A DNA stretch of 63,984 bases, filler included, from Basidioascus undulatus (lineage: Eukaryota): NCBI GenBank assembly GCA_000826855.1. It is 3 parts of 3 records of this genome, joined end to end, with 100 filler letters (N's around TTAATTAATTAA, not from the genome) between each part and the next. Parts side by side here need not be neighbours in the genome. Positions count along the whole stretch, not along the records: positions 21,435 to 42,768 come from JTLS01000333.1; 2 more parts are not named here. The stretch is one strand, 5' to 3'. The position numbers and the translations under genes were made by a program. This document shows positions 4,170-58,580 of this stretch, piece after piece; the stretch's first letter is position 1; each line of letters starts with the position of its first letter. Under the pieces are notes generated by a model. It ran no database searches, was not told where the DNA came from, and saw only the letters and a program-made list of their open reading frames with translations.

Positions 4170-6110
4170 TCACGCCTTCTCCGCCTCCGCCGCGAGCCTC
4201 GCGCGCTCCTTCACCTCCTTCGCGATCTTCGCCGCCCACTCCGCGCTCTCCTCGAGGGACAGCCCGGCGACCGTCCCGCGCACGATCGCGTCCGGCTCCT
4301 TGAGCGCGAAGGGATTCTGGTGCTTCGCTTGGTCGAGCTCGGCGAGGCTGTGGTTCGTCTGCGCAAGGGAAAGGGGCCAGTTATTCTGGGCTTGGACGGT
4401 TGGGGGATGGGTGGTACTGGGGTTGAGAGGGGAGGAAACGACGCACGAAGCGGTGGTTCGCCTCGTCGGCGCGGACGGCGTACAGCAGGTCGACCATCTT
4501 GGCATCCGAGGGAAGGCGCCAGTACTGTTGGAGCCAACACAGTGAGTGTACTGCTAAGTAGAAAGCGGCAAGGCAGAATGAATACCTGCTTGGCGATGTC
4601 AGGCGCGGCGAGGTCGTTCCTGAAAGGGTGGCTGCATCAGCGGCAAGCCCCACATTAAACTCCAGGCATTCATCGTGGACGTACCACTCGGGAACATGTC
4701 CCGCCTCGAGCTCCTTGAGCGCATGCGTATACGTCTTGACGGCCTCTTCCTCAACTGCCAACCAAGCACTCGATCATCAGGAAAACTCTCGGGAAATCCG
4801 GCCAAGAAAAGAAGCTCACGGATCCCTACGAAACGGTGACAAGTCTTCGGTGAGAGGATGTACTGGCAGCGCGCGTTCGGTGAGTCCCAACTTCCCGGAC
4901 AGTACGTTCCACGACAGTAACTCACGGCGGTGAAGAAGAGGTTGTAGAAGACGCCCTGGGCCCCGATGAGCATGAGGCGGAAGAACAGGCCTGCCTTCTT
5001 CTTCATCGAGATGAAAGTGCTGCAGGCCGAGGAAGGGGAAAACGCAAGTTGTCAGTGTAAGTTCGAAAGAGGACATCGGCTAGTGGGCTAGGAGACTCAC
5101 AGCAAGTGCATGCGCTCGTTCTCGGCCTCCTCCAGAAGGGTGTGCAGCCAGCCGTTGTCGCGGTGCTGAAAGTTGAGACCACATGTCAGCTGCCGGTTTG
5201 CAGTGCAGGGGGTGCGGGGGTAGACTCACCATCCGCCGGAGACTGCGGAGGTGGCGGAGCGTCGCGGCGGCCATGCCGGGGACGCCTGCGATGGATCTGG
5301 AACGACCCGAGGGAGCTGGTTAGCGTACGACACTAAGTCGATAATGGGTAAAGGAGCGCACTCGAGGAAGAGGAAGCGGCGTAGCCACTGGTCCGCGGTC
5401 ATGTGGCTGTCGGGGGAAGCCTTGTATCTGCATGGGATGAAGGGGACAAATGTAACAGTGTGAGCTGTGGCCATTGTAAAAGGGGTAAAGGGAAGGAGCA
5501 TCGCGTAGCGCACCCGGTCGCGACGTCAAAGCCCGTGCGGAGGAACTTGACGAAGAAGCCGGCGACGCGGTCGGACATGGTCTTAGGAGCGTGGGCGACG
5601 ACCTTGACTGCCTGCGAATGGAGGAGCCCCAAGAAAGTACGGTCAAATCATATTGAGATAAGGGAGGAGGACGAGAAATGGGAAGTGATGGTGAAAGAGG
5701 GGACACGCACCTTCAGCTCCCCCGGAGAGTAGACGGGGTGGAACAGCACCCAGTCGCCCGTCTTGTCCGGGCCGGTATGCAGAGCGTCCTTGAGCGATCC
5801 ATGCTCTGAGCCAACGTAGTACGTAGTACCCCTGGTCAACAAGACGCCGTTTGAAAGTAAACGGACGGACAAGAGACCCACCCTTGAAATGGATCGGCTC
5901 GCTGCCCTGGCCGGTGTTGCCCTCGAGCCCCTTCAGGCCAGCGGGCTTGACGTCGACGTGCTTCTGCTGGGCGATGTGCGTCGTCGTGGTCGCGGTGGCC
6001 AGGGAACGGGTAAAAGGCCTGGAGGCGATCGTGGGCAGCGAGGGAAGAAGCGGGGGGTGGGGCACTGCGACGCAGCGCAGCGGCAGGCGGGTGGCGGCGG
6101 TGCGAAGCAT
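4170..6110 (-). CDS. AOX1: Mitochondrial alternative oxidase
   Basis: Arg/Thr-rich presequence; spliced exons give LFLESIAGVPGM, LLEEAENERMHL, QGVFYNLFF, HRFVG, EEEAVKTYT and VRADEANHR, the diiron motifs of AOX. Confidence 0.97.
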
Positions 6111-6204: not shown

Positions 6205-6753
6205 CGACTTAGTGAGCGGAGTCGGCGATTTGGAGCGTGGTCTGTTTGGCAACCAGCCAGTCAAGGGCGGAGCCGGGAGACGCGAGCGGGGTACAGCCGG
6301 AGGTGCCCGCGCGGCCTTCGCTCTTCAGTCGCCGATGATCCGACGGCCGCTGCAGCGCCCAGTCATAAGCATGTGGTTTGAGAAAATACGGAGCCATGAG
6401 CTGGCATGTGAATGTGGGTATGTGAGTGAATGGAGAGAGGCTGTGGGTGCTGCTGGGCCGGGCCAGATACAGGTAGTCAGTCTGTGACGATGGGCGAGTC
6501 GAGGCGGTGTCGCCGGTGGACGGTGCGTTTCCAGGCATGTTCACAGCAATTTTCTTTGTAAATAAGCAGCTCTACCATTGTTTTTCCTGTAGGATCGATA
6601 GCGACAGGTTCAGTTGTGAGCAAGCGAGCGAAAGGGCAGGAGTGAGAGCGAGTGACCAGTCTTAGCCCCGCAATGAACTGCTCTACACACGAAAGTCTCA
6701 GGCCGTCGCGATGCAGCCTTCCTTCCCTCCTTACACATTTGACAACCCTCATC

Positions 6754-7415
6754 ATGAGAACTCGATCATATACAGCTCTCCAGACCCTTCACAGGCCCCT
6801 TCACTTCTCGAGGGCGTACTCCTCCCAGCCGACCCCGTCCGCGTCCGCTCCTCCCAGCGATCCCCCCGCAACACCCACCACGCTCGTCGCCCCTCCCTCG
6901 CCGATCTCCCACCTCCGCCCCATCCGCTACGCGTCCCCCTCGACCCTACGCAGCGGGTCTCGTCCCTCCTCCTCGTCCGGCTCCCCGCACCCGTACTCCA
7001 CTGCTGAGTTTTGCCCCTCCTCCAACAACGACGCGGACGAGCTCGCGTTCCACCTCGCCCGCGAGCGCCTCGACGCGTTCAACGACCGCTTCTGGGCGGA
7101 CAACAACGTCCGCTGCGAGGAGGCGAGGCGGAGGTGGCTGGAGGGCGTGCGGGAGGGCGAGGAGAGGGATATGGCGCTGCAGGTATTCTGGGCGGAGTGG
7201 GTGAGTGGTCCTCGTTCGGATTGGAGGAGTAAGGTGGTAGGCTGATTGAGGATGAGCGAACGGGTACTAAGGCCAAGGCAAACAGGAGGAGATACCTCAA
7301 CTGGACGATCGCTTGGTGGAAGGGCCAGCTCGGCCTGCTCAGACCCGCGTTCAGGATCGCTAGGCGCAATGCGGCGAGGAGGGTCCTCGCCGCTGTCGGG
7401 CTGTCTTCCCAATGA
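6754..7415 (+). CDS. COA8/APOPT1-like mitochondrial protein (cytochrome c oxidase assembly factor 8 family)
   Basis: Presequence-like MRTRSYTALQTLHRPLHFSRAY; ISHLRPIRY and LDAFNDRFWADNNVRCEE..FWAEW motifs; one intron from 7201, then AKANRRRYLNWTIAWWKGQLGLLRPA..stop. Family call is from motif recall. Confidence 0.75.
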
Positions 7416-13645: not shown

Positions 13646-16308
13646 CGCTGTTGGCGCAGGAGCAACAGGGGGAGCTAGGGAAGGGCGGGCGGAGGAGAGA
13701 GAGCGAGCACCGCGCGCAGGGTGCGGTTACTGCGAAGCCGAGGCAGAGGAAGTCGCCCATGGCGAGGAAGATTAGGCGGGAGGTGTTTGTGCCACCAGCG
13801 ATTAGCGTGTCAAATTTGGGGAGGCTGTTTGGGGTTCGGATGGGTGCGTTCTGCTCTGTGCGCTTTGTGATTCTGGAGCCTCAAGCTGAACTGCGGGGGT
13901 TCTTGGGGTGCAGATCGACTGCAAAGGACGATGCTCCAGTCCGGGATGGAGAATGTCAGCTTCGATCGAGGTGGGCTGCTTCCCCTTCATGCAATTATAG
14001 TTCCAAGACGCGGACCTGACAGTCTTTGCGCCCGCATTGTGAAGTACTGAGCGCCGAGGACGCCTCGCTGTTGGCGTATGAGTTTGGGCTGGAGCCTGTT
14101 GTCAACGAGGAGCGCGCTTTCGATATCTACCCCGAGTGCGTTCTGACCGGCTTTTATTTCTGCTCCATAATGCTTTGATGCTGATGTTTGAATGCGGGAC
14201 GGCAGCCCTCCTCATTCCGACTCATCAACCCTCCCGCTGCGCCCGCCAGTCGTGACCATCATGGGGCATGTCGATCACGGAAAAGTCCGTTTCCTTCAAT
14301 TTCCCCTCTGTCCCTTTCAGCGGGGATTTCGGCTCAAAGGACATCATCGCAGACGACCCTCCTCGACACGCTCCGCTCCGCCTCCGTCGCCCCCTCCGAA
14401 GCGGGGGGGATAACGCAGCACATCGGCGCGTTCTCGGTCCCCCTGCACCTGCTCTCCACGTCCACCTCCTCGTCTCCGATCCAAGCGTCCGCCGACACGC
14501 CTGGGAGCATCACCTTCCTCGACACGCCGGGGCACGCGGCGTTCACGGCGATGCGCGCGCGCGGCGCGAGCGCCACGGACATCGTCGTCCTCGTCGTCGC
14601 TGCCGACGACGGCGTCATGCCCCAGACAAAGGAGGTCATTGAGCTCGTGCAGAGCAGTAATGGCGTGGGGCGCGTGGGGCTCGTGGTGGCTATTAACAAG
14701 TGCGATAAGCCGGGCGTGGATGTCGTACGTTGCTTTTCTCTCTTCGCCTCTCCCCCCCTCCCCCTCTCCTTTCTCTCGACTTGAGCCTTGGTAGCACGAT
14801 GCTGACTGGTGCGCTGTTTTATTTTATTAGTCCAAGATCAAGCACGCTCTTCTCGCTGCGGGCGTGCAGCTCGAGGAGTTCGGCGGCGACGTCCCCTCTG
14901 TCGAGGTCTCCGGCCTGAAGGGGACGGGCCTGCCGGAGCTCATGGACACCATCGCTGCGCTTGCGGAGATGCAGGACCTTCGGGCGGAACAGACTGGGCG
15001 CGCGCACGGCGTGGTCCTCGAGAGCCGGGTGGATAAGGGCAGGGGGTGCGTTGTTTCGTACTGACATTCCCTTGTGCGCCGTGCTCAGGCTGACAACTTG
15101 TGCTCTTTTGTGCGTTGCACAGCAACCTCGCCACCGTCCTCGTCCAGCGCGGCTCGCTGTCGGCCGGCTCGATCATCATCGCGGGCAAGACGTGGGCGCG
15201 CGTGCGGCAGATGTCGGACGACAAGCAGAAGCCTGTGCGGACCGCGCTGCCCGGCACGCCCGTGACGATCATGGGGTGGAAGGAGCTTCCGCTGGCGGGC
15301 GACGAGGTGCTGGAGGCCGGGGGCGGGGAGGACGAAGCGAAGCGGGCGGTGACGAACCGGGTCGAGGCCGAGGAGCGCCTGCAGATGATGCGCGACCTGG
15401 AGCAGATCAACGCGAAGCGGCTTGCGGACCGCGAGGCGCACGAGAAGGAGAAGGAACGCGAGAAGGAGGAGCGCGCGGCCAGGCGTGCGGGGACGGCTGT
15501 CGCCCCCGCTGAGGCGGCGGAGGAGGGCGAGGGCGCTGAGAACGAGGAGCCTGAGTTTAAGGAGCTGAGGCTCGTTGTTAAGGCGGACGTGAGCGGCACG
15601 GTCGAGGCTGTCGTCGGCGCACTGCAGGGCATCGGGAACAAGGAGGCTGGCGTCAGGATCGTCGCATCTGGCGTGGGCGACATCGCCGAGTCGGACATCA
15701 CTCGTGCGTTGGCCACGGAGGGTGCGTCCGATCCCTTGCTCCCTATTTTCTCCACCCAGACTCGCTCACGTCTCTTTCTAACAACAGCCATGATCGTGGG
15801 CTTCAACGTCAAGGCGACGCGGTCGATGCAGAACACAGCGGCGGAGTCCAAGGTCCCGCTCCACCTGGACACGGTTATCTACCGGCTGATGGACGACGTC
15901 AAAGCGCGCGTCGCGGCGCTCCTGCCGCCAATCATCGAGAAGCGCGTGCTGGGCGAGGCGACAGTCCAGCAGCTCTTCGACATTAACGTCAAGGGCCGCG
16001 TGATGAAGCGCATCGCGGGCTGCAGGGTCGGCAACGGGCTCATCACGCGCAACGCCGAGATCCGCGTCCTCCGCGACAAGGAGGTCGTCTATGAGGGTAC
16101 GTCGTGCGCTGCGGGCCTGCTTCCTGCGAGTTGGCTGACGGGCGCTATCGGGACAGGCACGATCGAGACGTTCAAGCACCACAAGAAGGACATTGACCGG
16201 GCTGGGAAGGGCCTCGAGTGCGGTCTGGCGTTCGAGGGGTTCGAGGACCTGCGCGAGGGCGACTCGATCCAGGCGATCGAGACGGTAGAGAAGCCGAGGA
16301 GTCTCTGA
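13640..16308 (+). CDS. IFM1: Mitochondrial translation initiation factor IF-2, 5' end missing
   Basis: [69 protein letters not shown] and GLECGL motifs; stop at 16308. No start or presequence upstream of RGSLLAQ at about 13640. Confidence 0.95.
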
Positions 16309-21434: not shown

Positions 21435-22187
21435 CGGAGCGCAGTGACTCCGAAGTAGGTCTTTGAACTTTCCTTAAGACTTTATCATACTGTTGCCCAG
21501 ACTCCCCTCAGTGAAAGCCTGTCGAGGCTCGACAGCGGTCCGTACTTCGCAGCACCTTGCTCCAACTCCGAGTCTGTTTCATAGACTTTTATGCTTCAAC
21601 CTGCCATCGACCGTTTCACAAACGCCTTAGAGGTCGCCGTTACAACAGGAACGCACAATGCTACACATTCTTTGCCGAGGTTTCCGGTGCAGGACCAGCA
21701 CAAGTAAGATTGTGCCCGCTGCGTTCCGGCAGCCGTTGTACCTCTGACGTCTCGCTTCCATCACTAAGAAAGGGTCCAAGGACGAGTATTGATCGAAAGG
21801 AACGACTTGATAAGGCGGTCTGAAACTTCAAAGATCACTGGTAGGTAGGTCGCAACTCAAACAGCGTACCGATGAATGGGTCGCAGTGCAGCAAGTGCTG
21901 CACGGTCATCAAGCCGTCCCGATATTCCAAGCAGGATATAGAAGGCCCGTTCCACATAGCCCTTTCAGCCCATCATCCACAGACGCGTGAAAATGAGACA
22001 AATCCGGTCAATGCAGCCTTGCTCCAAATACAACGGCAGAGCTCTCCAGACCGAGAAGCATAGGTATCCGACGATGAGTCGAGAACAAGGGTATGCGACG
22101 GGGTGTTACAACGTTGCAAAGAAACATCAAAAACTCGCTCAACAAAACAGAAAAAATGCGATGCGGTCCCCTCCAACCCCCCTTCCC

Positions 22188-25100
22188 TCAGAAGCTCTCC
22201 ATCACCTGCCTAGCCCACGGATTCCCCTCCAAGCGCTCCGCAAACTCCTTATAGCACGCCTTCAGCGCCTCCGCCTCCCCGTCCGTCCCAGCCATCACGA
22301 CGTCCTCCCCCCCTCCCGCACCGGCGATGCGCGCCGCGACGGCCTGCATGAATTCTTGTACGAGCGCGACGCCCGCTTCGGTCTCTTCCTTCGAGAGCGT
22401 GGAGGCGGCGGGGTTCTCGGCTTCTGTGTTCATAGGAAGAGAGAGGATGCGTTAGTCAAGGGCGCTGAGAGGAGAGGAGGAGAGGCAGCGAAGAGGACGC
22501 ACCGCCCCCGAAGTCTTCGAGCTCGTCGGCTTTGAGCTTGGCGAGCTGGTAGATCCACGCTGAAGTCAGCGACGGTGGGATAGGGTGATGAGAGTGGAGA
22601 ACGCCCACCTTGATCACGTCCTCCGGGAAGCCCGCGAGCTCAGCGACGTTGATGCCGAAGCTCTGGTCGCTCGTTCCTGCAGCGGACAGACATTCTCAGT
22701 TCGAAGCTTCTGGATAAACGAACGACCTTCCGTGATAAAACGCACCCGGCTCGACCTTGTACAAAAGCGAGATATCGCGGTCCTGTCTCCCGCCGCCCTC
22801 GCGCTTCTGGACATGCGCGACGACGTGCAAGTTCTTGACGTGCGGGACTTGCTTGGACATTTCTGGGCGATCGAGAAACGAAGCGGAGCCGTTAGTGAGA
22901 TGGTGTTAAGTACAAAGGGGAGTTTGGGGACATACCGGTAAGCTCGTGGAAGTGGCTAGCGAAGACGCAGAAGCTGCGGAGCTCGGTGGCGATGTGCTCG
23001 CTGATGGCCCACGCCAGACCGAAGCCGTCGTACGTCGACGTGCCGCGCCCGAGCTCGTCGATGATGATGAGGGAGTCTCGGCTGGCAGACTGCCACGCAT
23101 GTTCGGATCAGCAAGCGCTCTCCAGATCACTTGTGGGGACCAGTTACCTTCAGAATCGTCGCAGTCTCGAGCATCTCGGCCATGAACGTCGACACGCCCT
23201 TGAGCTGGCTGTCCCCTGCGCCGACGCGCGCGAGGATGCAGTCGAAGACGGGTGTCCGCGCGTCGGTGGCTGGGACGTAGCAGCCGACTTGCGCCAGGAG
23301 CGCGATTACACCGATCTGCATGAAGGTCGTGAGCACCGATGTGCAACTGTGGCCAGCCAACGCGACTGCTCACCTGGCGAATGTAGGTCGATTTGCCGCC
23401 CATGTTCGGACCGGTGATGATGAGGAACTCGCTCTCATCTGAGAAGTATTCGAGGGTAAATGAGCTGCTGCGCAGTCTAGAGATGTAGGTGAAGAAGCCT
23501 CAACGTACCGCGCTTGAGCGTCACGTCGTTCGATATGAAGTTCACGTCGTCCTGGACCTCCAAGCACGGGTGACGTGCCTCGGTCAGGATGAGGTCGCCG
23601 CCTGATTGCAATGCTTTTTGTCAGTAACACGCTTATCATAGCCAAATCGTAGTGAACGTACCCTTCTCGAGAACAGTTGGCTTTACGAAAGGATGGGTGT
23701 CGCCCATAGAGACGAATGCGAAGCTGCCAAGTGCAACTGCTCGTCAATAGCTGTCTTTGCAGGCCCGAATCCGCTTACGTACCTCATGATGACATCGATG
23801 TGAGCGAGGATGTTGTCGAGCAGTTCGAGGACCGGGCAGTACGTTGCTGTGTACCACCCATGCTTCTCGTCAGTCGCCATCTGGATTTAGTCGGGTAGCC
23901 GAGGAAACGCACCTGCGATCGACACGACCTCCTTGACGAGCTGGCTCTGCTGCTTCTCGTAGTCCTTCTGCAGCTCGGCGTAGTCCTCGCTCAGCGACTT
24001 GAGCACGTCCGTGCGGAAGTACGTTCCCGTCTTCTGTGTGGACAGCTCCGTGTACTTCTTCTTGTCCGCAATCGCCTTGGCCTCCTGCTCCCCTTACGCC
24101 CGTTCAGTCTCTCGCGCCTTGCTCCAAACCCAAGAAGCGAAAGGGAGGAAGGGGAGGACGCACAGCCTTGGTAACGCGGAAGACGTATCCGAACGTCGAG
24201 TGGTTCTCCATATGCACCTTCTTTCCCTTCTCGAGGCCGAGGCTCCGCGCGACGGACGTGAACTCGTTGTCGAGCTGATCGCGTGTCATGTGCAGGTTCC
24301 GGCGGATGTTCTGCAGCTTCGTGTCGAAGTCGGCCTTGATCACGTAGTTGTGGTGCTGCAGCTCATCGAGATCGATCGTCGCCTCGACCATCTCGACCAG
24401 CTTGGAGAGCGACGTATCGCATTCCTGATGTCCCGCCTTTCGTCAGCTAATGCACAGGGGCAAACAAGCTCACTCGGAAGGCGAAGAACGCACCCGAAGC
24501 TTGACGAGGTACATCTCCTCCAGCAGCGGGCGGTAGCTCTCCTCGTCGACCTGCGTCGCCTCGAACGTCTCAATCAAGCCGGGCACGAGCTGGCACGCTT
24601 GGTAGCTCCGGATGACGTCCTCAAGCGTCGCGACGCTCTTCTGGAAACGCTTGCTGAGGCGATGCAGGTCGGGCATGGTCTTGAGGAAGTCCTCCTGTAC
24701 AAACATGGAAATTAGCATCGGCGATTGGGAGGGAGTGATACCGGATTAACCTACCCGGATGACGCCGCGGGAGCTGCTGTCGGTCACAAAGATCTCGACA
24801 AGGTTCTGGCGCTTGTCTATGGGGCGTGTCAGCCAGGCGCACCAACCGTTCAGAGGGCGGAAGAACGTACGGATCTCGTGGAGGTTGACCAGCGGCTGCT
24901 TCAGCCATTGACCAAGCAAGCGCTGCCCTTGCGCGGTCTTGCAGCGGTTCAGCAGGCCGAAGAGGCTCATGTTCTTGTTGCCGCCGAGCTCGCCGGGCGC
25001 GGGGAAGAGGTTGAGCGCGCGCAGGGCGGACGCGTCGAGTTTCATGTACTGCGAGAGGTCGTGGTGGCGGAGCGAGAACTGGCCGAAGTTCGTGTCGTCC

Positions 25101-26553
25101 GACATGAGGCCGAGATAGGACGTGAGCGCGGAGGCGGCCGCAAGCGCTTGCTTGAGGTCGAACTCGGCTGTGGCGTGAAGGGAGGTGAGAAGAGGCGCCC
25201 ATAAAGAAAAGCATGATCGGGCGAAGGACTCACGCAGCTGCTTGATGTCAACGTCCTCCTTTAGCAGACGCTCGAGATCCTGCTCGATGTCCTTGGTCGT
25301 GAACTCGCCTGCACTCGACGCATCGTTGGTCAGAGGAGCACGATAGTCGATGCGAGAGAGAATATACGTACTCGCTTTCCGCTCAGTCACCACCACGCCG
25401 CACCTCTCCACCAGCGTCTTGAGCTTCGCAAGGTCCGGGTCCCGCGCCTTGTCGTCCGCCGCCAGCAAGCACTCCTTCACGCCGAGCTGGATCAGGAGCG
25501 ACTGTTGCGCAACGAAATGGCGATTCAGCCCCACGCCCCTGCTAGTGACGCATTGGGAAAAGAAACGTACCTCGACGTTGCTGAACAAGTCGTTGTCGAT
25601 AAACTCGCTCAGACCAATCTCGCGGATCGATGCGTCCGCGAAGGCAGCGCCGATTGTGAGCGCCTTGTCTTTGTTCGTGAGCTTGATCGCCATGACGATG
25701 GGGGCGGTGACGAGGTCGGAGGAGGTGAAGAGGAGGTCCTCGACATCTTGCAGGTTGCCGGGTGATGCCTGCAAGAAAGGAAATGGTCTGTCAGCTCATG
25801 CCCTACCGCTTCCGAACGTCTCCTCCCATTGCCGAAAGCCTCGAGGTTGATCCTACACCTGTATCGCGCAATAGCCGACAAGCTCAATGTCTAAGAGGAA
25901 GACTCACCTGCTTCTCCAGATGGAACACGCTCGCCTTCTTCCCACCCTCCGAGGCCCAGATCTCGACGCGCATCTGCCGCGCCGTGAGCGCCTCGCGGAG
26001 GTACATCTGCGCGTTCGTGCGGTTGAGGGTGACAGATGGCAAGCCGCTGCCGTTCTTCTTCGACCCCAGATACTTGATCACCGATTGCGTCTTGAAGACC
26101 TCGTTCGCGACCGCGATGGCGTCGTCGCCATGGGCCGAGTAGAAGTCCTATGAAGCTCCGTGTTAATCAGCCGGAGGACTGCAGGATGAGGAGGGAGAGA
26201 GCGGACCCCTCGCTCAAACAGCCGGACGGTTCCTTCTGGTTTCTGTAAATTAGCGGTGGTTCAGCCTTCACGCAGACAGCATCGGATGGAACGAGAGGGC
26301 GTACAGAAGGCATTTTGCGGAAGAACGAGCAGAACCCATCCTCCGCCGCGCTGTCTGTTCACCAGCAACCAACCGCCTCCGTCAAACCCCGTCCTGCATT
26401 CCAGAGGACCTCTTGCCTGGATCCTTCCGAGCCAAGTGCTACATACCGACTTCCAGCGCCGGGCGCTCCTGCGAGTACCTGGTCCGGCCGTCCAACCGGT
26501 CAAACGGGTCGTTGGACTGCCCTTGGATCATTCCGGACTCACATCAAAGACAT
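22188..26553 (-). CDS. MSH2: DNA mismatch repair protein MSH2
   Basis: Reconstructed start [126 protein letters not shown] and SFGINVAEL motifs. Confidence 0.98.
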
Positions 26554-30835: not shown

Positions 30836-33800
30836 ATGTCGTCCTCATCCCAGCCTCCCCTTCCATTATCATCCCAGCCCATCGACCTCACGCGCTCCTC
30901 GCCTCCTCCCGCCAACTCCTCCGACGGGGAAGTCCAGCTCGTCTTTCGCTCCAGCACCTCCACGCCCGCTGGACCTACGCCTAAACCGAAGAAGTCGCGC
31001 GTCCTTCCGTGGAACGACGCTGGCGAGTCCAGCGCGGCGGAGAGCAAAGGAAAGGGGAAAGCGAGGGCAAACGAGGGCGGGGGCTCGGACGTCGAGATCC
31101 TCACCCCCCTCAAGGCGTCGGGCTCGGGTCCAGCGCCGAGCCAGAGTAGTACTTATACGCCGACTTCGAGTGCGGGTAACTTGAGGAGCGAGGTTCTCTA
31201 CCCTCCGTCAGGGCGGGAGTCCAACTATGGGTTCGAGGTGCGTCCCTGTCACCCTTCCTCCCTCTTTCCCTCATCCCACTCACTCAACCCTCAACATCTT
31301 TTCCAGTACGCCCGCTCCAACCGCGCTTCTTGCAAAGGTTCTTCTCTCCCTCTCCCTAAAAGATGCAGGGCCCGCGCGACTGAACCCCCTACCTTACAGC
31401 CCGCGGCGCCTGCTCCGGCTCCAAGATCCCCAAGGACTCGCTCAAGTTTGCGGTCCTCGGCGCGGGGTGGCAGGGCGAGCCGGGGCTTATGTGGAGGCAC
31501 TGGTGCGTCTCATCTCTCATCTCCCGCTCATTCCTTTCATTCCCTCCTTGTCGAAGCGGTGACCTTTTTGGGGCGCCGCAGGGGCTGTATCTCCCTCGCC
31601 GAACTGCGCGCGCTCCAGGGATGCAGGCTCGATCACGTACCCGGCTTCCGCTCGCTGAAGGAGGAGGATCAGGCTCGCGTGCGGGCGGCGGTGCAGGCTG
31701 GGAGACGTGGGCTGCCTCCTCCCTCTCCCCTCTTCCCTCTACTCTTTCCCCTTTCCTGCATCCTTGCTCATCCCTTCCCTCCCCACAGTCCGCGACTCCG
31801 ACCTCTCCCCCGGCGCCCGTCTGCCGCCCGATCTCTCCTCCTTCCCTCCCGCCTCTCCCACTCCCACCCAAACCCCCACCCGCAAACGCCCCGCCCCAAC
31901 CTCCTCTCCCGCCGGCCCCTCCTCCACCCCCGTGGAGGAGCCCTCCGACTCCCAAGAGCAGGAGCCAGAGCCGGAGGAGGTCCTCTACGTGTCGATGCGC
32001 ACGGACGTCGTCGGCGTACAGTACTACCGCGGCTTGGTCGACTTTGGGGAGCTCGTTTCGCTTGTGCGGGAGGTGCGTACGCTCGGAGTGGGAGGAGGGG
32101 AGAGGGGTGGAAAGGGGGCTGAGGAGGGAAGGGGATGGGGTAGCCGAGGAACGCGTATGATCCGAATGCTATTAGGGTGGATAATATTCGGGGAGTTCAG
32201 GGTGTGTCGGTTTGCTTCGTTCTTCTCTCTTTTCGTTTCGTACCTCTCTTTATGTGAGAGCGGGTGGAGGCTTACCCCCACCCTCGCTCACCAGTCGGCC
32301 ACGTCCCCCGCAACATAGCGTCGCGCCTCGCACCTCTGCTCGACAAAGTCCGTCTCCGCCTTCCTCCCTCCTTTCTTCTCCTCTTCCTCTCCCGTCCCTT
32401 CCCCTCACTCCTACCCGTACTGCATCACAGAACATAGTGACCGCAGAAGGTACCATGAACTCGTCCAACGTCTCCGGCCGGGGCGGGGGCGGGAACACCT
32501 ACAAGCTCGCCATGACGCTGTCGATCTTTGGGCGCGCGGCGTGGAGGGAGAGGCTGGAGCCGCTGCTTGTTTGGGTGCGTTTCTTTTTCTCCCCTCCCTA
32601 TTCCTCTTCCTTCCACCTATTCGCGAACTCCTCTTCCTCTCACCCACCCCGCGAGACTGACGGGCAACGATGGACGACCGACAGGCCACCCCCGGCCAGC
32701 GCGGCTTCGCCGCCATGCGCGCTGCGAACCAGACTAGCGTGTCGGACACGTCTTCCTCCAGCCCCCAAAAGAAGGGCAAGGGCAAAGCCGCCTCCTCCTC
32801 CCTTGCTGTGGGACCAAGTGGGAATGCGAGGACGACAGTGCCAGACGCGGAGATGCGCCGCGTCTTGGACGGGCTGGACAAGGTCAAGCGGGACGAGTCG
32901 GGGGAGGGGCTGCTGGTGCGTCGATGGTTCGTTGGGGGGAAGAAATATGGGCAGCTGACAAGTGAATGGGGGACAGGACGCGCTCTGCAACGAGGTGGAC
33001 CTCCTGAAGCTGCCGGTGCACCCCGACCCGCCTGGGCGGGCGAATGGGCTGTTGAGGAGCGAGTTGCTTAGGCACCAGGTGCTCCTCTCCCGCCTTCCGC
33101 TTTCTCCCACCCATTCCCAATCCCCCTCTTTCTTTGCGCTCTATTCTGCGCGCGGACGCTGATTAATGAGCATTGGGCACGGGCGCACGGCAGTCGCAAG
33201 GCCTCGCGTGGATGGAGCGCGCAGAGAACCCCATCCGCCCGCGCACGCCGAAAGATGCGCAGGTCCAGTTTTGGGTCAAGAAGGCGAATGGGCCGGGGCA
33301 GGTCGGTTTTCCACCCTTCTTTCTCTCGTCTTCATCCCATCACCGGTCACTTTCAAAGCACAGTCTCCTATTTAACAGACCTACTTCTACAACTTCGCCA
33401 CGAAGACCCCGCAGGCCGAGGCGCCCGTCCTGGGCCGCGGCGGGCTGCTCAGCGACGGGATGGGCCTGGGGAAGACGCTCTCCATCCTCGCGCTCGCGGT
33501 GCACACCGCGCGGGAGGACGTTGGCGAGGGCTACTCGTCCGCGACGCTTGTTGTTTGCCCGCTTTCGGTGGTTTCTAGTGAGTAGTTGCGCTGTCGAAAC
33601 GGATGGGGAGAGCGTGTTGGGTGGAGGCTGATGCGGATGTGGTGGGAAGATTGGGAAACGCAGATCAAGGTGCGGAGAGGGTGAAGGAAGGAAGGAAGGG
33701 AGGAAAGGGAAGGCTGAGTGGAGTGGAAAAACAGGAACACGTCTCGGCGCCGGAGTTCTCGTACCACGTCTATCATGGCGACGGGCGGAAGGTCTCTCCT

Positions 33801-36494
33801 GCCGCGCTGGCGAAGAATACGGCTGTCATCACTAGTTCGTCTTCCTCCTCTCTTGCCCTCTCTCCCCATACGGCCACCGCGCTAATGCGCTATTCCCTCC
33901 CCGCAGCGTACCAAACCGTCGCCTCGGACTGGGCGTCCTCCTCGACTGCCTCGGGCAGCAGCGTGAAGAAAGCGCGCCCGAACCCGAAGGGCCTCTTCGG
34001 CATCAAGTGGAAGCGCATCGTGCTCGACGAGGGACACGTCATCCGGAACGCCAAGTCCAAGTTGTCCCAGGCGTGCGTCGCGCTCGACGCGGAGCGCCGG
34101 TGGGTGTGCACGGGCACGCCGATCATCAACTCGCCGAAGGTGGCTGCTGAGCGAGAGAGAGCGCGACGGGGGGAGGAAGAAGGACTGAATGAGGTGTTTG
34201 GGGTTGCGCACAGGACCTCGGCACGTTCCTCTCGTTCCTCCGCATCTGCCGCCCGCTCGACGACCCCGAGATGTTCAAGCGCGTGCTCATGCGCCCGCTC
34301 GGGGCAGGCGACGCTGGTGCGTCGCGTGTGCTTTCTCCCTGCCCGCCCTGTGCGCCCGCTGAAGATGGGATGACCTGCAGGCGGCGCCCGCGTCCTCAAG
34401 AGCCTGATGACGAGCGTGTGCATCCGGCGCACAAAGGAGATGAAGGCCCCGGACGGCGAGCCGATCGTCAAGCTCCCCTCGATCGACTTTTACTCGGCCA
34501 AGGTCATGCTCACGCCTGATGAGCGCGCTCGATATGACGAGTGCTTCTCTCATTATGTCCTGTGTTTGCTTTGTGCGGGTTTGACGTTGTCGGATGGGCG
34601 CCCGGACAGAGTCGCCGCCGAGTCAAAGCGCCGCTTCCTCGACCTCCAGCAGGGCAGCGAGTCCGCCACGACGACGTACTCGAACGTCCTCGCGCTTCTC
34701 ACGCGCCTGCGTCAGCTCGCGCTCCACCCAGATCTCGTCCCCAAGGGTGCGCCGCAAGCGCTTTCCCCCCTCTTCCCCCTTTCCCCTCCTCCTCAGATTT
34801 TCCTGACAAAGATTTGCTCATGTCGGCCAGACTACCTCGAGGAGCTGCGCGAGAACGCCAAGAAGCGCGGCGGGCCCGCGAAGCAGGTCGACGCGGTCGA
34901 CTCGGACGAGATACGCAAGCTCCAGACCCGGCTTAAGCAGGCCATGGACGACGCGGAGGAGTGCCCCGTGTGCATGGTTGAACCCATGGAGGACCCGGTG
35001 ATTCTTACTTGCAATCGTACGTGACGAACTTGGCTGGTTTCCCGTGGAGGAAGGATGGGCGCTGACAGCTTGCGGAGTAGATCCCTTCTGCCGGGCTTGC
35101 ATCCTTGTGAGTTTGTAGCTCTATCGGATTGCGTTTTGAGCTCACAATCGCTATGAATTGCAGACGGTCATCTACAAGCAGGTGCGGAAACAACCCCGTA
35201 ACGGTCTGCCAACCAGCGCAAACGCAATCGCCTGACTTCGATCTTCTTCCCGCAGGCCAAATGCCCCATGGACCGCGGCGCGATCTCGCAAACATCCATC
35301 ATCGAGCCCGCGCCGATCATTGAAGAGGCCGACGCCGACGCGGACGTACAGGAATCGGGCGAGGGTGACGCGCTGCGCGCACCACCCAAGTCGAGCGCCA
35401 AGATCGACGCGCTGCTCGAGATCCTCAAGGCCGTCCCGAAGGGCGACAAGGTGCTCGTGTTCAGCCAGGTGCGTTGCTCTCTATGTTTTTGAGGAGAAAG
35501 AGCAGAATGCTAACCCGGCGGCGGCGGCAGTTCACGTCCTTCCTTGCGAAGGTGAGCTTGTCGTTGTCTTCTCGACAGACTTAGCCCAAACGGACGCTGA
35601 CGCGCTGCGGGTAACTCAGATCGCACCGCACCTGGACGCCGCTGGCCTCTCGCACGTTACCTTCGATGGCTCCGTACCCGTCAAGCGGCGCGACGCCATC
35701 ATCAAGCGCTTCAACGAGCCGGTCCCTGTGGACGACGACGCGGCGATGGGCGGGCAGCCGACGAAGGGCCCGCCGCGCATCATGCTCATCTCGCTGAAGT
35801 GTGAGGGTTTTCTGATGCTCGGGCTTGTTGAATCGGCGTTAGAGCGCTGAACTAGAGGACGAACAGGCGGAGCGCTGGGGCTGAACTTGACGGCGGCGAA
35901 TCACGTCGTGATGGTCGATCCGTGGTGGCAGATGAGTATCCTTTCTTCGGGCCTGTCCTTACATCGCGATACTGACATTCGTCGCCGTGTTCACTCGAGC
36001 ATCGAGGCCCAGGCGAGTTGACTATCCTTTCGGATATGTAGAGGTATCTCGCGTGTACTGATGCGCTCCTTTGAGTTCCAGGCGATCGACAGGACCTACC
36101 GCATCGGGCAGCAGAAGTACGTCCATCTTGTGATCCATCAGCGGTTGAAATCTGCTGAGCGTGCCTTCTCCCTTTATTAGGTCTGTCAAGGTCTTCACCC
36201 TGACCACGGAGGACACTGTCGAGGCGAAGGTCCGCACATGGTCCACATCTCCCCCTTCTTTCTCGCAGGCGCTCACTCTCTCACCTACGTAGGTTCTCGA
36301 GATCCAGGCGCGCAAGAACGCGCTCATCCAGCAGGCACGAGTCAACTGCGACTACGGCTGCCCCTTGCGCGGCGACTCACGTGTTCGTCTCATAGGCATT
36401 CTCGGGCATCAAGAGTAGCAAGGAGGACAGGCGACAGGCGAAGGAGACACGCATTGCCGAGCTAAGGGAGCTGTTTGGCGTTGCGGGCAGGTAG
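30836..36494 (+). CDS. HLTF/Rad5-like SNF2 helicase-RING E3 ligase with N-terminal PARP-type zinc finger and HIRAN domain
   Basis: zf-PARP (FEYARSNRASCKG..C..KIPK..WRHWGC), HIRAN (VVGVQYYRGLV..LVREPRNAYDPNAIRVDN..QVGHVPR), GGLLSDGMGLGKT, RIVLDEGH, CTGTPIIN, RING (CPVC..CNHPFCRAC..CPMDR), KVLVFSQF and QAIDRTYRIGQ. Confidence 0.93.
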
Positions 36495-45589: not shown

Positions 45590-48360
45590 GTGCGGCTCAG
45601 GGACTTTGCCGATGTCTCCGAACTCCGTCATCTCAGCGATCAAAACGCGCTGTAAGAGAATGCCACTTCCGCGGAAGAAGGAGAGCCAGCTGATGGTGTC
45701 TTGTCGTTTCAGCTACTTCATCATCATCGCATTGGTTGCCACATGCGTAAGCCTCGGCTAGGGCACATTTGGATTGAGACCGCGGCTAACGTAACTGCGG
45801 CAGTCTATCGCCGTCCAAGCGACTTCGATGGTTCGCACGAGCGAAAGCCTCACACTCAAGATCCCGAAATACAGCTTCCGCTCGCTGCTTCGTCAAGACG
45901 TGTGTACGTATCACAGGGTGCTTCGATTGGCCTAAGCCAATTGCTGTCCTGACCGTATAGCCTAGTTCGACGAGGTGGACAACAGCACGGGTTTGATGCG
46001 TCTCTTTGGGCGATCAAATAGTGTCTAACATTACTATACACAGGTGCGCTCACTTCGGCACCCGCCGAGAACGCGCAGAAAGTCCAAGGCCTTGCGGGGA
46101 TCATTCGGCACCATCCTAGAATCAGTGCGTATCGCCTATCTTCTAAAAGCTATCTCCTCTCGTGTATGTTCCCCTGTGACCGGGCATGAGCGGATGATCC
46201 TGACGAAGAGGAGGACTGCAGCGCCGGACTCATCATTGGCATTGTGTACGGGTGAAAGCTCTGCCTGGTCGGAAGTGCGTGTGTGCCATTCACCGTGAGT
46301 CTACGTCCATGAATCTGTTCCCCTTCATTTCGGCAGTCACGCAAATGCGCCGGCTTCATCCGCCTGCACGTCGTCACGCTCAAGGACCACAAGAACAAGC
46401 GGGCGCACGAGGAGTCTGCCCAGCTGGCATGCGAAGCAGCAGGTACGTACAATGCGTGCGACGCTACCTCACCGCATAGGCTGAATAAGCCTTGTACACA
46501 GGGGCAATTTGCACCGTTGCTAGTTTGACGCGCGAGGATGACTGCAGCGAGAAGTACCACCAGTCGCTGGAGGGTCCGGCTCGCATCTCGCTTCGCAGCG
46601 GCCTGTGGTCGAACGGCATCTACGCGTTGAGCCAGAGCTTGGCATTCTGGGTGATTGAGTTGATCTCCTGGTGTGTACTAGCCTGTTCCCTTGAGGAAAG
46701 CTGAGCTCATCCTGCTTATCTCTCAGGTACGGCTCGCGTTTGCTGGTCGCCTCGAGTACGACACTAGGCAGTTCTTCACCGTCTTGTTGTGAGTTTGGCT
46801 AGCGTGTTTGAGTATGCGAGGCTGTGTTTCAGGTGTATGGTTTTCGGGTCCATCCTGTAAGTCTTCTTTTTAAAGCGCGACCGGTGAGGAGAATGCTCAA
46901 CTAACGCCCTACGTCTCAACAGAGCCGGCAACGTCTTCAGGCACCAATCGACCCAGGCCCTCTTTGAGGAAACTTTGATGCTGACTTCGACGCATCGAAA
47001 TCAGCTTCGCACCCAACATCTCCAGCGCTCGCTCAGGAGCCGCCCGCACGGTCGAGCTCATCGGCAGCCAGCCGGAGAACATCGAAGACTCGGACGAGGG
47101 TCTGAAACTCGAGAGCGTCGAGGGACACTTCTGATTCACCGATGTTCACTTCCGGTAAAAAATTCCCTTCTTTTCATCACGAGAAGTGCTGAAACGCTGA
47201 TTGCCCTCCTAACGCCTGAAGTTACCCGGACGTGCCTGTTCTTCGCTCCCTCAATCTGACATCCAGCCTGGGACTTACGTGGCGCTTGGTAGGCCAAATT
47301 CCCCTTATATTCTCCTCTGCGCTTACAATCGAGCTTACACCGTATGTGCACAGTGGGACCGTCCGGCCGCGGAAAGTCGACAACTATCCAGGTGTGTTCT
47401 CAAGCCAGACTCCTTCCGCAGCGGAGCACGTCAGCTTAACCTTCGAGATCCCCTCTGCAGCTCATCGAGCGCTTCTACGACGTCCTTCACGGCCAGGTCA
47501 CCCTTTGACGGGCACGACGTTCTGGACATCAACGTCGCACAAGAACCTCTTCTGTACATTTCACAATCCCATTTAGCCGCCTCCCACTAACCAAGAGCGT
47601 GTAAAAACAGGTACTCCCGAACAGTCAAGTACAACATCCTCCTCGGCGCGACGAAGCCGTACGAGGAGGTCACGCAGGACGAGCTGGAACAGGTAGGCGA
47701 TTTCGCGCCTGTTCGCTTCGGACGATCGACTTGACTTACGATGGTGCGGAACTACGTAGGCTTGCTGCAACGCCAATATTCTAGACTTCTTTGAGAGCCT
47801 GCCGAACAAGTTTTGACACCGAAGTCGGCGGGAAGGGGTACGCCGTGTCGTTTCCAATTTTCCGTCGCCCGGGTCGGCATTGTTTCCCTGCCTTTGAAAA
47901 GCACGCAACTCAGCGGAGGTCAGAAACAGGTAAGCTTTCTCGTCCATTTCAATTGGCGGGGTGTGAAAAGTGTCTGGCACAGCGCCGACACATTTTCACT
48001 TGCAGGGCATCGCTATCGCTCGCGCTTTGATCCGCCCGCCCAAGATTCTGTTCATGTTCGTATCTTTTATCAAGAGCGGACAGCTCTCCACGAGCAAGGA
48101 TACTCACAGATAATGTTGCACATTGACGAAGCGACGTGCGCTCTTGACTCCGAGAGCGAGAAGGTGGTGCAAGCTGTGAGTCCGCTTTACGCAGAATTTG
48201 GCCTCATGCACAATCATGTACGAACCTTCTCCTTCTTTCCCACTGCTTCCGAGATGCCCAAAAAGGAAAGTCTCACCCATTTACTTGCTCTGTCCTGCAG
48301 CTACGTTTCCAAGTACGGGCGCATCTCTCAAGCCGGAACGCACTGGGATCATGGAGATGG
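45590..48360 (+). pseudogene. ABCB (MDR1/P-glycoprotein-like) transporter pseudogene, second TMD-NBD half
   Basis: ENAQKVQGLAG, HEESAQLACEAAGAICTVASLTRE, YALSQSLAFWV, Walker A GPSGRGKST, QLSGGQKQ, IAIARALIR and DEATCALDSESEKVVQ; multiple frameshifts and premature stops. Confidence 0.85.

Positions 48361-54366: not shown

Positions 54367-58580
<4,214 letters not shown>

Follow-up and report, generated by a model that had tools for sequence, protein, structure and literature searches.

How might a helicase gene still encode its conserved C-terminal motif when that motif is interrupted twice in close succession, by introns neither of which has the usual GT and AG ends? This is the question raised by a Rad5/HLTF-like SNF2 helicase gene in a 63,984-nucleotide (nt) stretch of the Basidioascus undulatus genome (assembly GCA_000826855.1; three joined parts, filler included), hereafter the window, in which positions 21,435 to 42,768 come from JTLS01000333.1. 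An intron with AT-AC ends, an 18-nt micro-exon and an intron with GC-AG ends follow one another inside the motif, an arrangement that had been proposed in a preliminary description of this DNA and that is now supported by orthologues, by enumeration of the possible splice solutions, by the quality of the splice signals and by a contrast in codon usage. Our studies suggest that the first of these elements, at 35932-35994, is probably a genuine U2-type ('type II') AT-AC intron, which would be excised by the major spliceosome.

The interrupted segment begins with a 65-nt exon (35867-35931) that ends in ...VMVDPWWQ and is preceded by a GT-AG intron at 35801-35866; like all features of this gene, it lies on the plus strand. 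The AT-AC intron that follows (35932-35994, 63 nt; donor CAG/ATGAGT, acceptor TTCAC/TCG) is free of stop codons in frame and contains a candidate U2-type branch site, CTGAC (35972-35976), whose branch A, position 35975, lies 19 nt short of the final base of the intron. The 18-nt micro-exon (35995-36012) encodes SSIEAQ and carries the E-x-Q of the SNF2 helicase C-terminal motif. It is separated by the GC-AG intron (36013-36081, 69 nt; donor CAG/GCGAGT, acceptor TTCCAG), which has an in-frame TGA at 36019-36021 and a branch-like CTGAT 20 nt from its 3′ end, from a 35-nt exon (36082-36116) encoding AIDRTYRIGQQ and the first bases of a K codon. Two words reminiscent of U12-type introns are nested in the AT-AC intron, GTATCCTTT from 35936 and TCCTTAC at 35956-35962. 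The ends and lengths of the introns, the micro-exon, the in-frame TGA, the nested words and CTGAC can all be read in the sequence just as the preliminary description gave them.

Excision of 35932-35994 and 36013-36081 yields DPWWQ-SSIEAQ-AIDRTYRIGQ, and the earlier claim that the SNF2 motif is restored in this way with exact spacing is borne out both by orthologue motifs and by tblastn. Among the 12 orthologues that were fetched for this reading, the motif is DPWWQSAIEAQAIDR in Tilletia (P0067), DPWWQSAIEKQAIDR in Cryptotrichosporon (P0001; ...QSAIEKQ...), DPWWQPAIEAQAIDR in Rhodotorula (P0025; ...QPAIEAQ...) and DPWWQEGIESQAIDR in Agaricomycetes (...QEGIESQ...); the residues and the spacing of the joined product agree with these basidiomycete proteins. 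With P0067 as the query, tblastn mapped WWQ, SAIEA and QAIDR exactly onto the three exon pieces of the window, and six residues lie between WW and Q in all 30 homologues that match the motif pattern (120 were listed, the other 90 falling outside the pattern). The motif is likewise uninterrupted in each of the 74 loci matching a D-P-W-W DNA pattern among 80 related metagenome loci. No intron follows WWQ in any of these 80 loci, which are mostly distant relatives and probably not fungal; because the peptide patterns used to select them overlap the motif or border directly on it, the sample disfavors loci in which the second position holds an intron. Introns do lie nearby in some of them, between DP and WW in five Agaricomycete-like loci (L007, L008, L010, L012, L015) and before MDP in two others. 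As a separate observation, three deposited Agaricomycete protein models (P0004, P0005, P0015) look mis-spliced at MDP/WWQ: two of them lack 'MDP', and in the third, from Cantharellus, MDP and WWQ are set apart by about 19 additional residues.

The gene that hosts these introns encodes a Rad5/HLTF-like SNF2 helicase, with a RING between the ATPase lobes and an N-terminal HIRAN region, the latter known by alignment to orthologues. Our model of it (31983-36494), for which orthologues were aligned by tblastn, frame-keeping splice sites enumerated and the sequence itself read, runs from the HIRAN region to the stop codon and consists of 26 exons with 25 introns; further upstream (approximately 30.8-31.98 kb), outside the model, lies the N-terminal part of the gene. 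The translation comprises 899 codons with only one stop, which is terminal, the rest of the gene being intact. In BLASTP, P0001 of Cryptotrichosporon and P0006 align with it over approximately 900 residues at 45-46% identity. The Pfam family SNF2-rel_dom matches the open reading frame at 33582-34370, a RING-like stretch (C-P-V-C...C-N-H-P-F-C-R-A-C) is present, and the orthologues that align from the HIRAN region to the C-terminus carry precomputed Pfam assignments to PF08797, PF00176, RING families and PF00271. An initial homology search with the single exon 35620-35799 returned 32 candidates, none of them at E <= 0.001. Of the 23 best matches to the helicase, 21 are named, and each of these is a basidiomycete; a 404-residue exon of the mitochondrial IF-2 gene elsewhere in the window is best matched in Wallemia (54% identity), in Naganishia, Kwoniella and Cryptococcus (50-53%) and in Bartheletia (53% over 77% of the query). 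These matches place the host among the basidiomycetes, with no close relative represented in the protein collection, its best identities being 45-62%. The introns of the helicase gene are short (54-115 nt), and their ends are GT-AG in 22 cases, GC-AG in two and AT-AC in one.

The splice signals of the AT-AC intron are those expected of the major spliceosome, apart from the terminal dinucleotides. When donors were scored at the seven positions outside +1 and +2 against the U1-complementary consensus MAG/nnRAGT, only two of the gene's 25 donors matched at all seven, CAG/ATGAGT of the AT-AC intron and CAG/GCGAGT of the GC-AG intron, the other 23 scoring 3 to 6. The usual donor of this host is GTGCGT-like, and inspection by eye of five introns in the mitochondrial IF-2 gene showed GTGCGT, GTGGGC or GTCCGT donors. 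The length of the AT-AC intron (63 nt) and its branch distance are both typical for the helicase gene, where CTRAY in the other introns lies 15-31 nt from the 3′ end as compared with 19 nt for CTGAC. These signals, and the coding logic that places the boundaries, are direct readings of the DNA; that the intron is in fact spliced, and by the major spliceosome, is what we infer from them. The neighboring intron at 36013-36081 reads as an ordinary U2-type GC-AG intron in every respect apart from the AT-AC intron that adjoins it 18 nt upstream.

Several points weigh against this assignment of the AT-AC intron. Splicing at the 35932-35994 and 36013-36081 junctions is deduced solely from coding logic, and the absence of minor small nuclear RNAs (snRNAs) is reported in the literature for Basidiomycota rather than taken from the host genome. 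The nearest relatives, at 45-62% identity, are too distant for the conservation of the AT-AC ends to be compared. An intron shifted by 4 nt (35936-35998, GT...GA) would give QMSIEAQ with the same spacing, such that protein comparison alone does not separate the two. Finally, the base given at 35932 or at 35994 might reflect an error in base calling or assembly, and this consideration leads to the alternative that survives best, although we regard it as improbable, namely that the intron is, or until recently was, GT-AG, and that its AT and AC ends reflect sequence or assembly errors or the decay of a recently inactivated allele. A possible third non-canonical intron in the same gene, at 36335-36395 with GC-AG ends and a weaker donor, could hint at local sequence trouble. 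However, under this explanation precisely the first and the last intron base would have had to change independently, and in such a way that the single pair known to be compatible resulted; errors or decay mutations that strike independently are not expected to produce such a pairing, and the co-occurrence of A as the first base and C as the last base of 35932-35994 therefore favors a genuine AT-AC intron. Moreover, the rest of the gene is intact and strongly biased in codon usage (G+C at third codon positions, GC3, 0.86), and no other donor of the gene has a better context.

A second alternative stays entirely within canonical splicing. The preliminary description had stated that the GT-AG alternatives tried there shift the frame, which is not true of all such alternatives: a pair of GT-AG introns at 35936-35999 and 36017-36081, flanking a 17-nt exon, keeps the frame and is free of stops, and it would be the choice of any gene predictor restricted to GT-AG ends. 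It nevertheless replaces the motif with QMTSRPRR, destroying the invariant I, E and Q, and both of its donors match the consensus at one of seven positions, below every other donor of the gene (minimum, three of seven); we consider it highly improbable that this is the natural product. The broader point, that no GT-AG solution restores the motif, stood up to an enumeration of every one- or two-intron solution within 35915-36100 with introns of at least 35 nt. With GT-AG and GC-AG introns only, there are 166 in-frame, stop-free solutions, and DPWW-x4-E-x-Q-AIDR is restored in none of them; the nearest, with an intron starting at GCAGAT, loses one W and leaves the spacing three residues short. 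When AT-AC introns were also allowed, two of 477 solutions restored the motif, both with 35932-35994 as the first intron, and the second of these pairs it with a GC-AG intron at 36007-36075 whose GCCCAG donor is weak (two of seven, counted by hand). Gene predictors limited to GT-AG introns would be left with either a frame-keeping alternative that destroys the motif or a broken model, and the helicase would then be mis-annotated in the lineage of this host.

It might also be supposed that the 63 nt are not an intron at all, being instead a lineage-specific coding insertion of 21 residues, or that they are usually retained as a regulatory isoform. In keeping with this, they are a multiple of three and stop-free in frame, and their retention had been put forward as a regulatory switch. 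Their composition argues otherwise. Read in frame, the 63 nt have a GC3 of 0.48, lower than that of every 21-codon window of the coding sequence (minimum 0.52; the coding sequence as a whole, 0.86), and their overall GC content of 0.51 is intron-like rather than coding-like, the helicase coding sequence having a GC content of 0.65, the gene's other introns 0.57 on average and the whole window 57.5%. This composition, and the fact that donor, branch site and length are all as usual for introns of the gene, mark 35932-35994 as non-coding sequence. There is no insertion at this place in the 30 motif-matching homologues or in the 80 metagenome loci, and a coding or customarily retained segment is accordingly very unlikely. 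As for a retention switch, the length and the open frame were as described; since five of the gene's 25 introns are likewise multiples of three without a stop, and the available portion of a survey by Frey and Pucker (2020; PMC7072748) gives 9-13% for fungal introns, these properties lend it no specific support.

The nested U12-like words had suggested to the preliminary description that the AT-AC intron might be a converted U12 relic, a view that the present evidence does not support. The 5′ end of the intron is /ATGAGTAT and not the U12-type /ATATCCTT, and RTATCCTT does not start at the boundary that the protein requires; GTATCCTT begins 4 nt inside the intron, out of register. A U12 branch word is expected roughly 10-20 nt from the 3′ splice site. 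The only such word in the intron, TCCTTAC, lies 33 nt upstream of 35994, and there is no TCCTTAAC-like word near the 3′ end; a U12-style intron built from both nested words would be shorter than 45 nt and would not restore the frame. In addition, GTGAGT followed by ATCCTT recurs at 48096-48105 on the minus strand, where it forms the same nested U12-like GTATCCTT, which indicates that such a word arises easily from a U2 donor next to a CT-rich tract. RTATCCTT as a whole has four matches in the window as compared with 1.4 expected (at least four were found in 7 of 100 shuffles), and no U12-like context was seen on reading the other three sites. A search of the 64-kb window with Rfam at gathering thresholds gave no matches, a result that is uninformative on the minor snRNAs of the host. 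The absence of an intron at this place in all 80 loci, a biased sample of mostly distant relatives, also counts against a relic, as does the report, in the available part of Larue and Roy (2023), that Ascomycota and Basidiomycota have no convincing minor introns and have lost most minor snRNAs.

The register-shifted intron introduced above (35936-35998, with a GTATCC donor and a ...CGA end), whether U12-like or otherwise non-canonical, keeps the motif spacing and begins with GTATCCTTT, which we take to equal the U12 5′ splice-site consensus, but it is barely credible, as its 3′ end would be GA, neither AG nor AC, TCCTTAC would stand 37 nt from that end with no TCCTTAAC-like word nearby, GTATCC scores one of seven as a U2 donor, the same nested word at 48096-48105 can come from a U2 donor and a CT-rich tract, and Basidiomycota are, as just noted, reported to lack minor introns.

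If 35932-35994 is removed as a U2-type AT-AC intron, its excision can be pictured from established splicing biology as follows. U1 would pair with the donor CAG/AUGAGU, perfectly except for the A at +1, and U2 with CUGAC as the branch site, 19 nt before the 3′ end. The pair formed by A(+1) and the last C would then substitute for the usual G/G pair at the second step. The GC-AG intron at 36013-36081, the donor of which is perfect except for the C at +2, would take the ordinary major-spliceosome route, and inclusion of the 18-nt exon would supply the E-x-Q of DPWW-x4-E-x-Q-AIDR. A more speculative extension, which we consider doubtful, is that the AT-AC ends act as a pairing lock for the 18-nt exon. 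Because A at +1 of the first intron is poorly compatible with the AG end of the second, the in-frame skip 35932-36081 would be suppressed, a skip that would cost the motif its E-x-Q and yet not provoke nonsense-mediated decay. Counting against such a lock, the other four micro-exons of the gene have GT-AG introns on both sides.

A further feature of the two introns, the word TATCCTTTC that the preliminary description had found in both, indeed has just two matches in the window, at 35937 and 36023, as compared with 0.19 expected, yet its significance is weak, because the introns of this gene are CT-rich and an exact 9-mer is common to 11 of its 276 intron pairs. Global alignment of the AT-AC with the GC-AG intron gave a score of 43, as compared with 28.7 +/- 4.4 for shuffled sequences, a score reached by 10 of 2000 shuffles; per base, several unrelated CT-rich intron pairs of the gene outscore this pair. 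A duplication or a shared element linking the two introns was rejected in view of these higher-scoring pairs and of the frequency of shared 9-mers.

Elsewhere in the helicase gene, several other junctions drew attention. Its micro-exons measure 6, 18, 18, 21 and 26 nt; besides 35995-36012, they lie at 33664-33669 (6 nt, probable), 35081-35106 (26 nt), 35164-35181 (18 nt) and 35531-35551 (21 nt), all on the plus strand. The probable 6-nt exon stands between GT-AG introns of 86 and 54 nt and gives ...SVVS-NQ-VEKQ..., as compared with ...SNWEKQ... in orthologues; the alternative, one atypical, purine-rich intron of 146 nt at 33578-33723, was given up in favor of the two introns once the sequence had been read. 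The last intron, 36335-36395 (plus strand), is probably GC-AG as well (CAG/GCACGA...TCATAG). Only this choice gives ...IQQ/AFSGIK..., with the spacing of all orthologues seen, and a GT donor 6 nt downstream (GTCAAC) would add two residues; the GC donor matches the consensus at five of seven positions, which makes it a less secure call. If it is real, three of the last six introns of the gene are non-canonical. Around the intron at 34326-34380 (plus strand; region 34300-34400), GASRVL, obtained by reading through before the donor, resembles GARVLK after the acceptor; the flanks look like a small tandem duplication across the intron, and the exact junction is ambiguous there.

Pfam matches on open frames indicate other genes in the window: an alternative oxidase (4602-5051, minus strand), COA8 (6646-7242, plus), mitochondrial IF-2 (14185-16305, plus), a MutS homologue (22909-25795, minus) and PEX1 (54886-58328, plus). 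The last exon of the mitochondrial IF-2 gene runs for 404 codons without interruption, in contrast to the intron-dense helicase gene.

How this intron relates to known systems can be judged from the available excerpts of the papers cited below. U2-type AT-AC introns account for 24 of 610,067 introns in five animals and plants, with examples in human SCN4A and SCN5A, and a strong U2-type donor serves as the criterion for the class (Sheth et al. 2006; PMC1557818). The helicase intron resembles those of the SCN4A/SCN5A type in that its ends are AT-AC, its 5′ site is in other respects a strong U2-type one, and U12 signals in register are absent. In particular, its donor CAG/ATGAGT recalls the strong /ATAAGT consensus of metazoan U2-type AT-AC donors (Gould et al. 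2016; PMC5029451). It differs from that class in that it lies in a basidiomycete helicase gene, in that its donor is /ATGAGT instead of /ATAAGT, and in that removal by the major spliceosome is here a deduction. With U12-type AT-AC introns it shares the termini and the internal words GTATCCTTT and TCCTTAC; unlike them, it begins with ATGAGT and not with ATATCC, carries those words out of register and belongs to a host group reported to lack minor introns. The adjoining intron at 36013-36081, with its seven-of-seven donor, CTGAT branch-like site and YAG acceptor, follows the pattern of strong donor compensation described for U2-type GC-AG introns (Sheth et al. 2006; PMC1557818).

Among fungi, the closest points of comparison come from yeast and from annotation surveys. 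A nested AT-AC intron in Saccharomyces cerevisiae RPL30 gives rise to a minor isoform, approximately 1-2% of mRNAs (Gould et al. 2016; PMC5029451), and an engineered AT-AC intron has been reported to undergo splicing in yeast (Parker and Siliciano 1993, as cited in Gould et al. 2016). Like the RPL30 intron, the helicase intron belongs to a fungal host group without a minor spliceosome, S. cerevisiae in the one case and, by report, Basidiomycota in the other; while the 5′ site in RPL30 resembles no known consensus, that of the helicase intron is a strong U2-type donor, and its AT-AC intron appears to be required for a functional protein. Xylanase genes of filamentous fungi have been mentioned as hypothesized cases (Sheth et al. 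2006; PMC1557818), AT-AC introns amount to approximately 0.03% of all introns in RNA-supported models for three fungi, one of them a basidiomycete (Aspergillus niger, Phanerochaete chrysosporium and Thermomyces lanuginosus; SnowyOwl; PMC4084796), and a Coprinopsis annotation accepts AT-AC among its splice-site types and finds micro-exons to be common (PMC12230235). These surveys (PMC4084796, PMC7072748, PMC12230235) are genome-wide counts. In the available portions of the literature on fungal AT-AC junctions, we found no account of this helicase gene and no stated link between AT-AC introns and micro-exons. The helicase intron would be a clean addition to the small set of fungal U2-type AT-AC introns, combining non-canonical ends with the strongest donor context of its gene and standing directly beside a micro-exon and a GC-AG intron. 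The class of U2-type AT-AC introns, though very rare, has been described before, and the helicase gene adds a further case to it.

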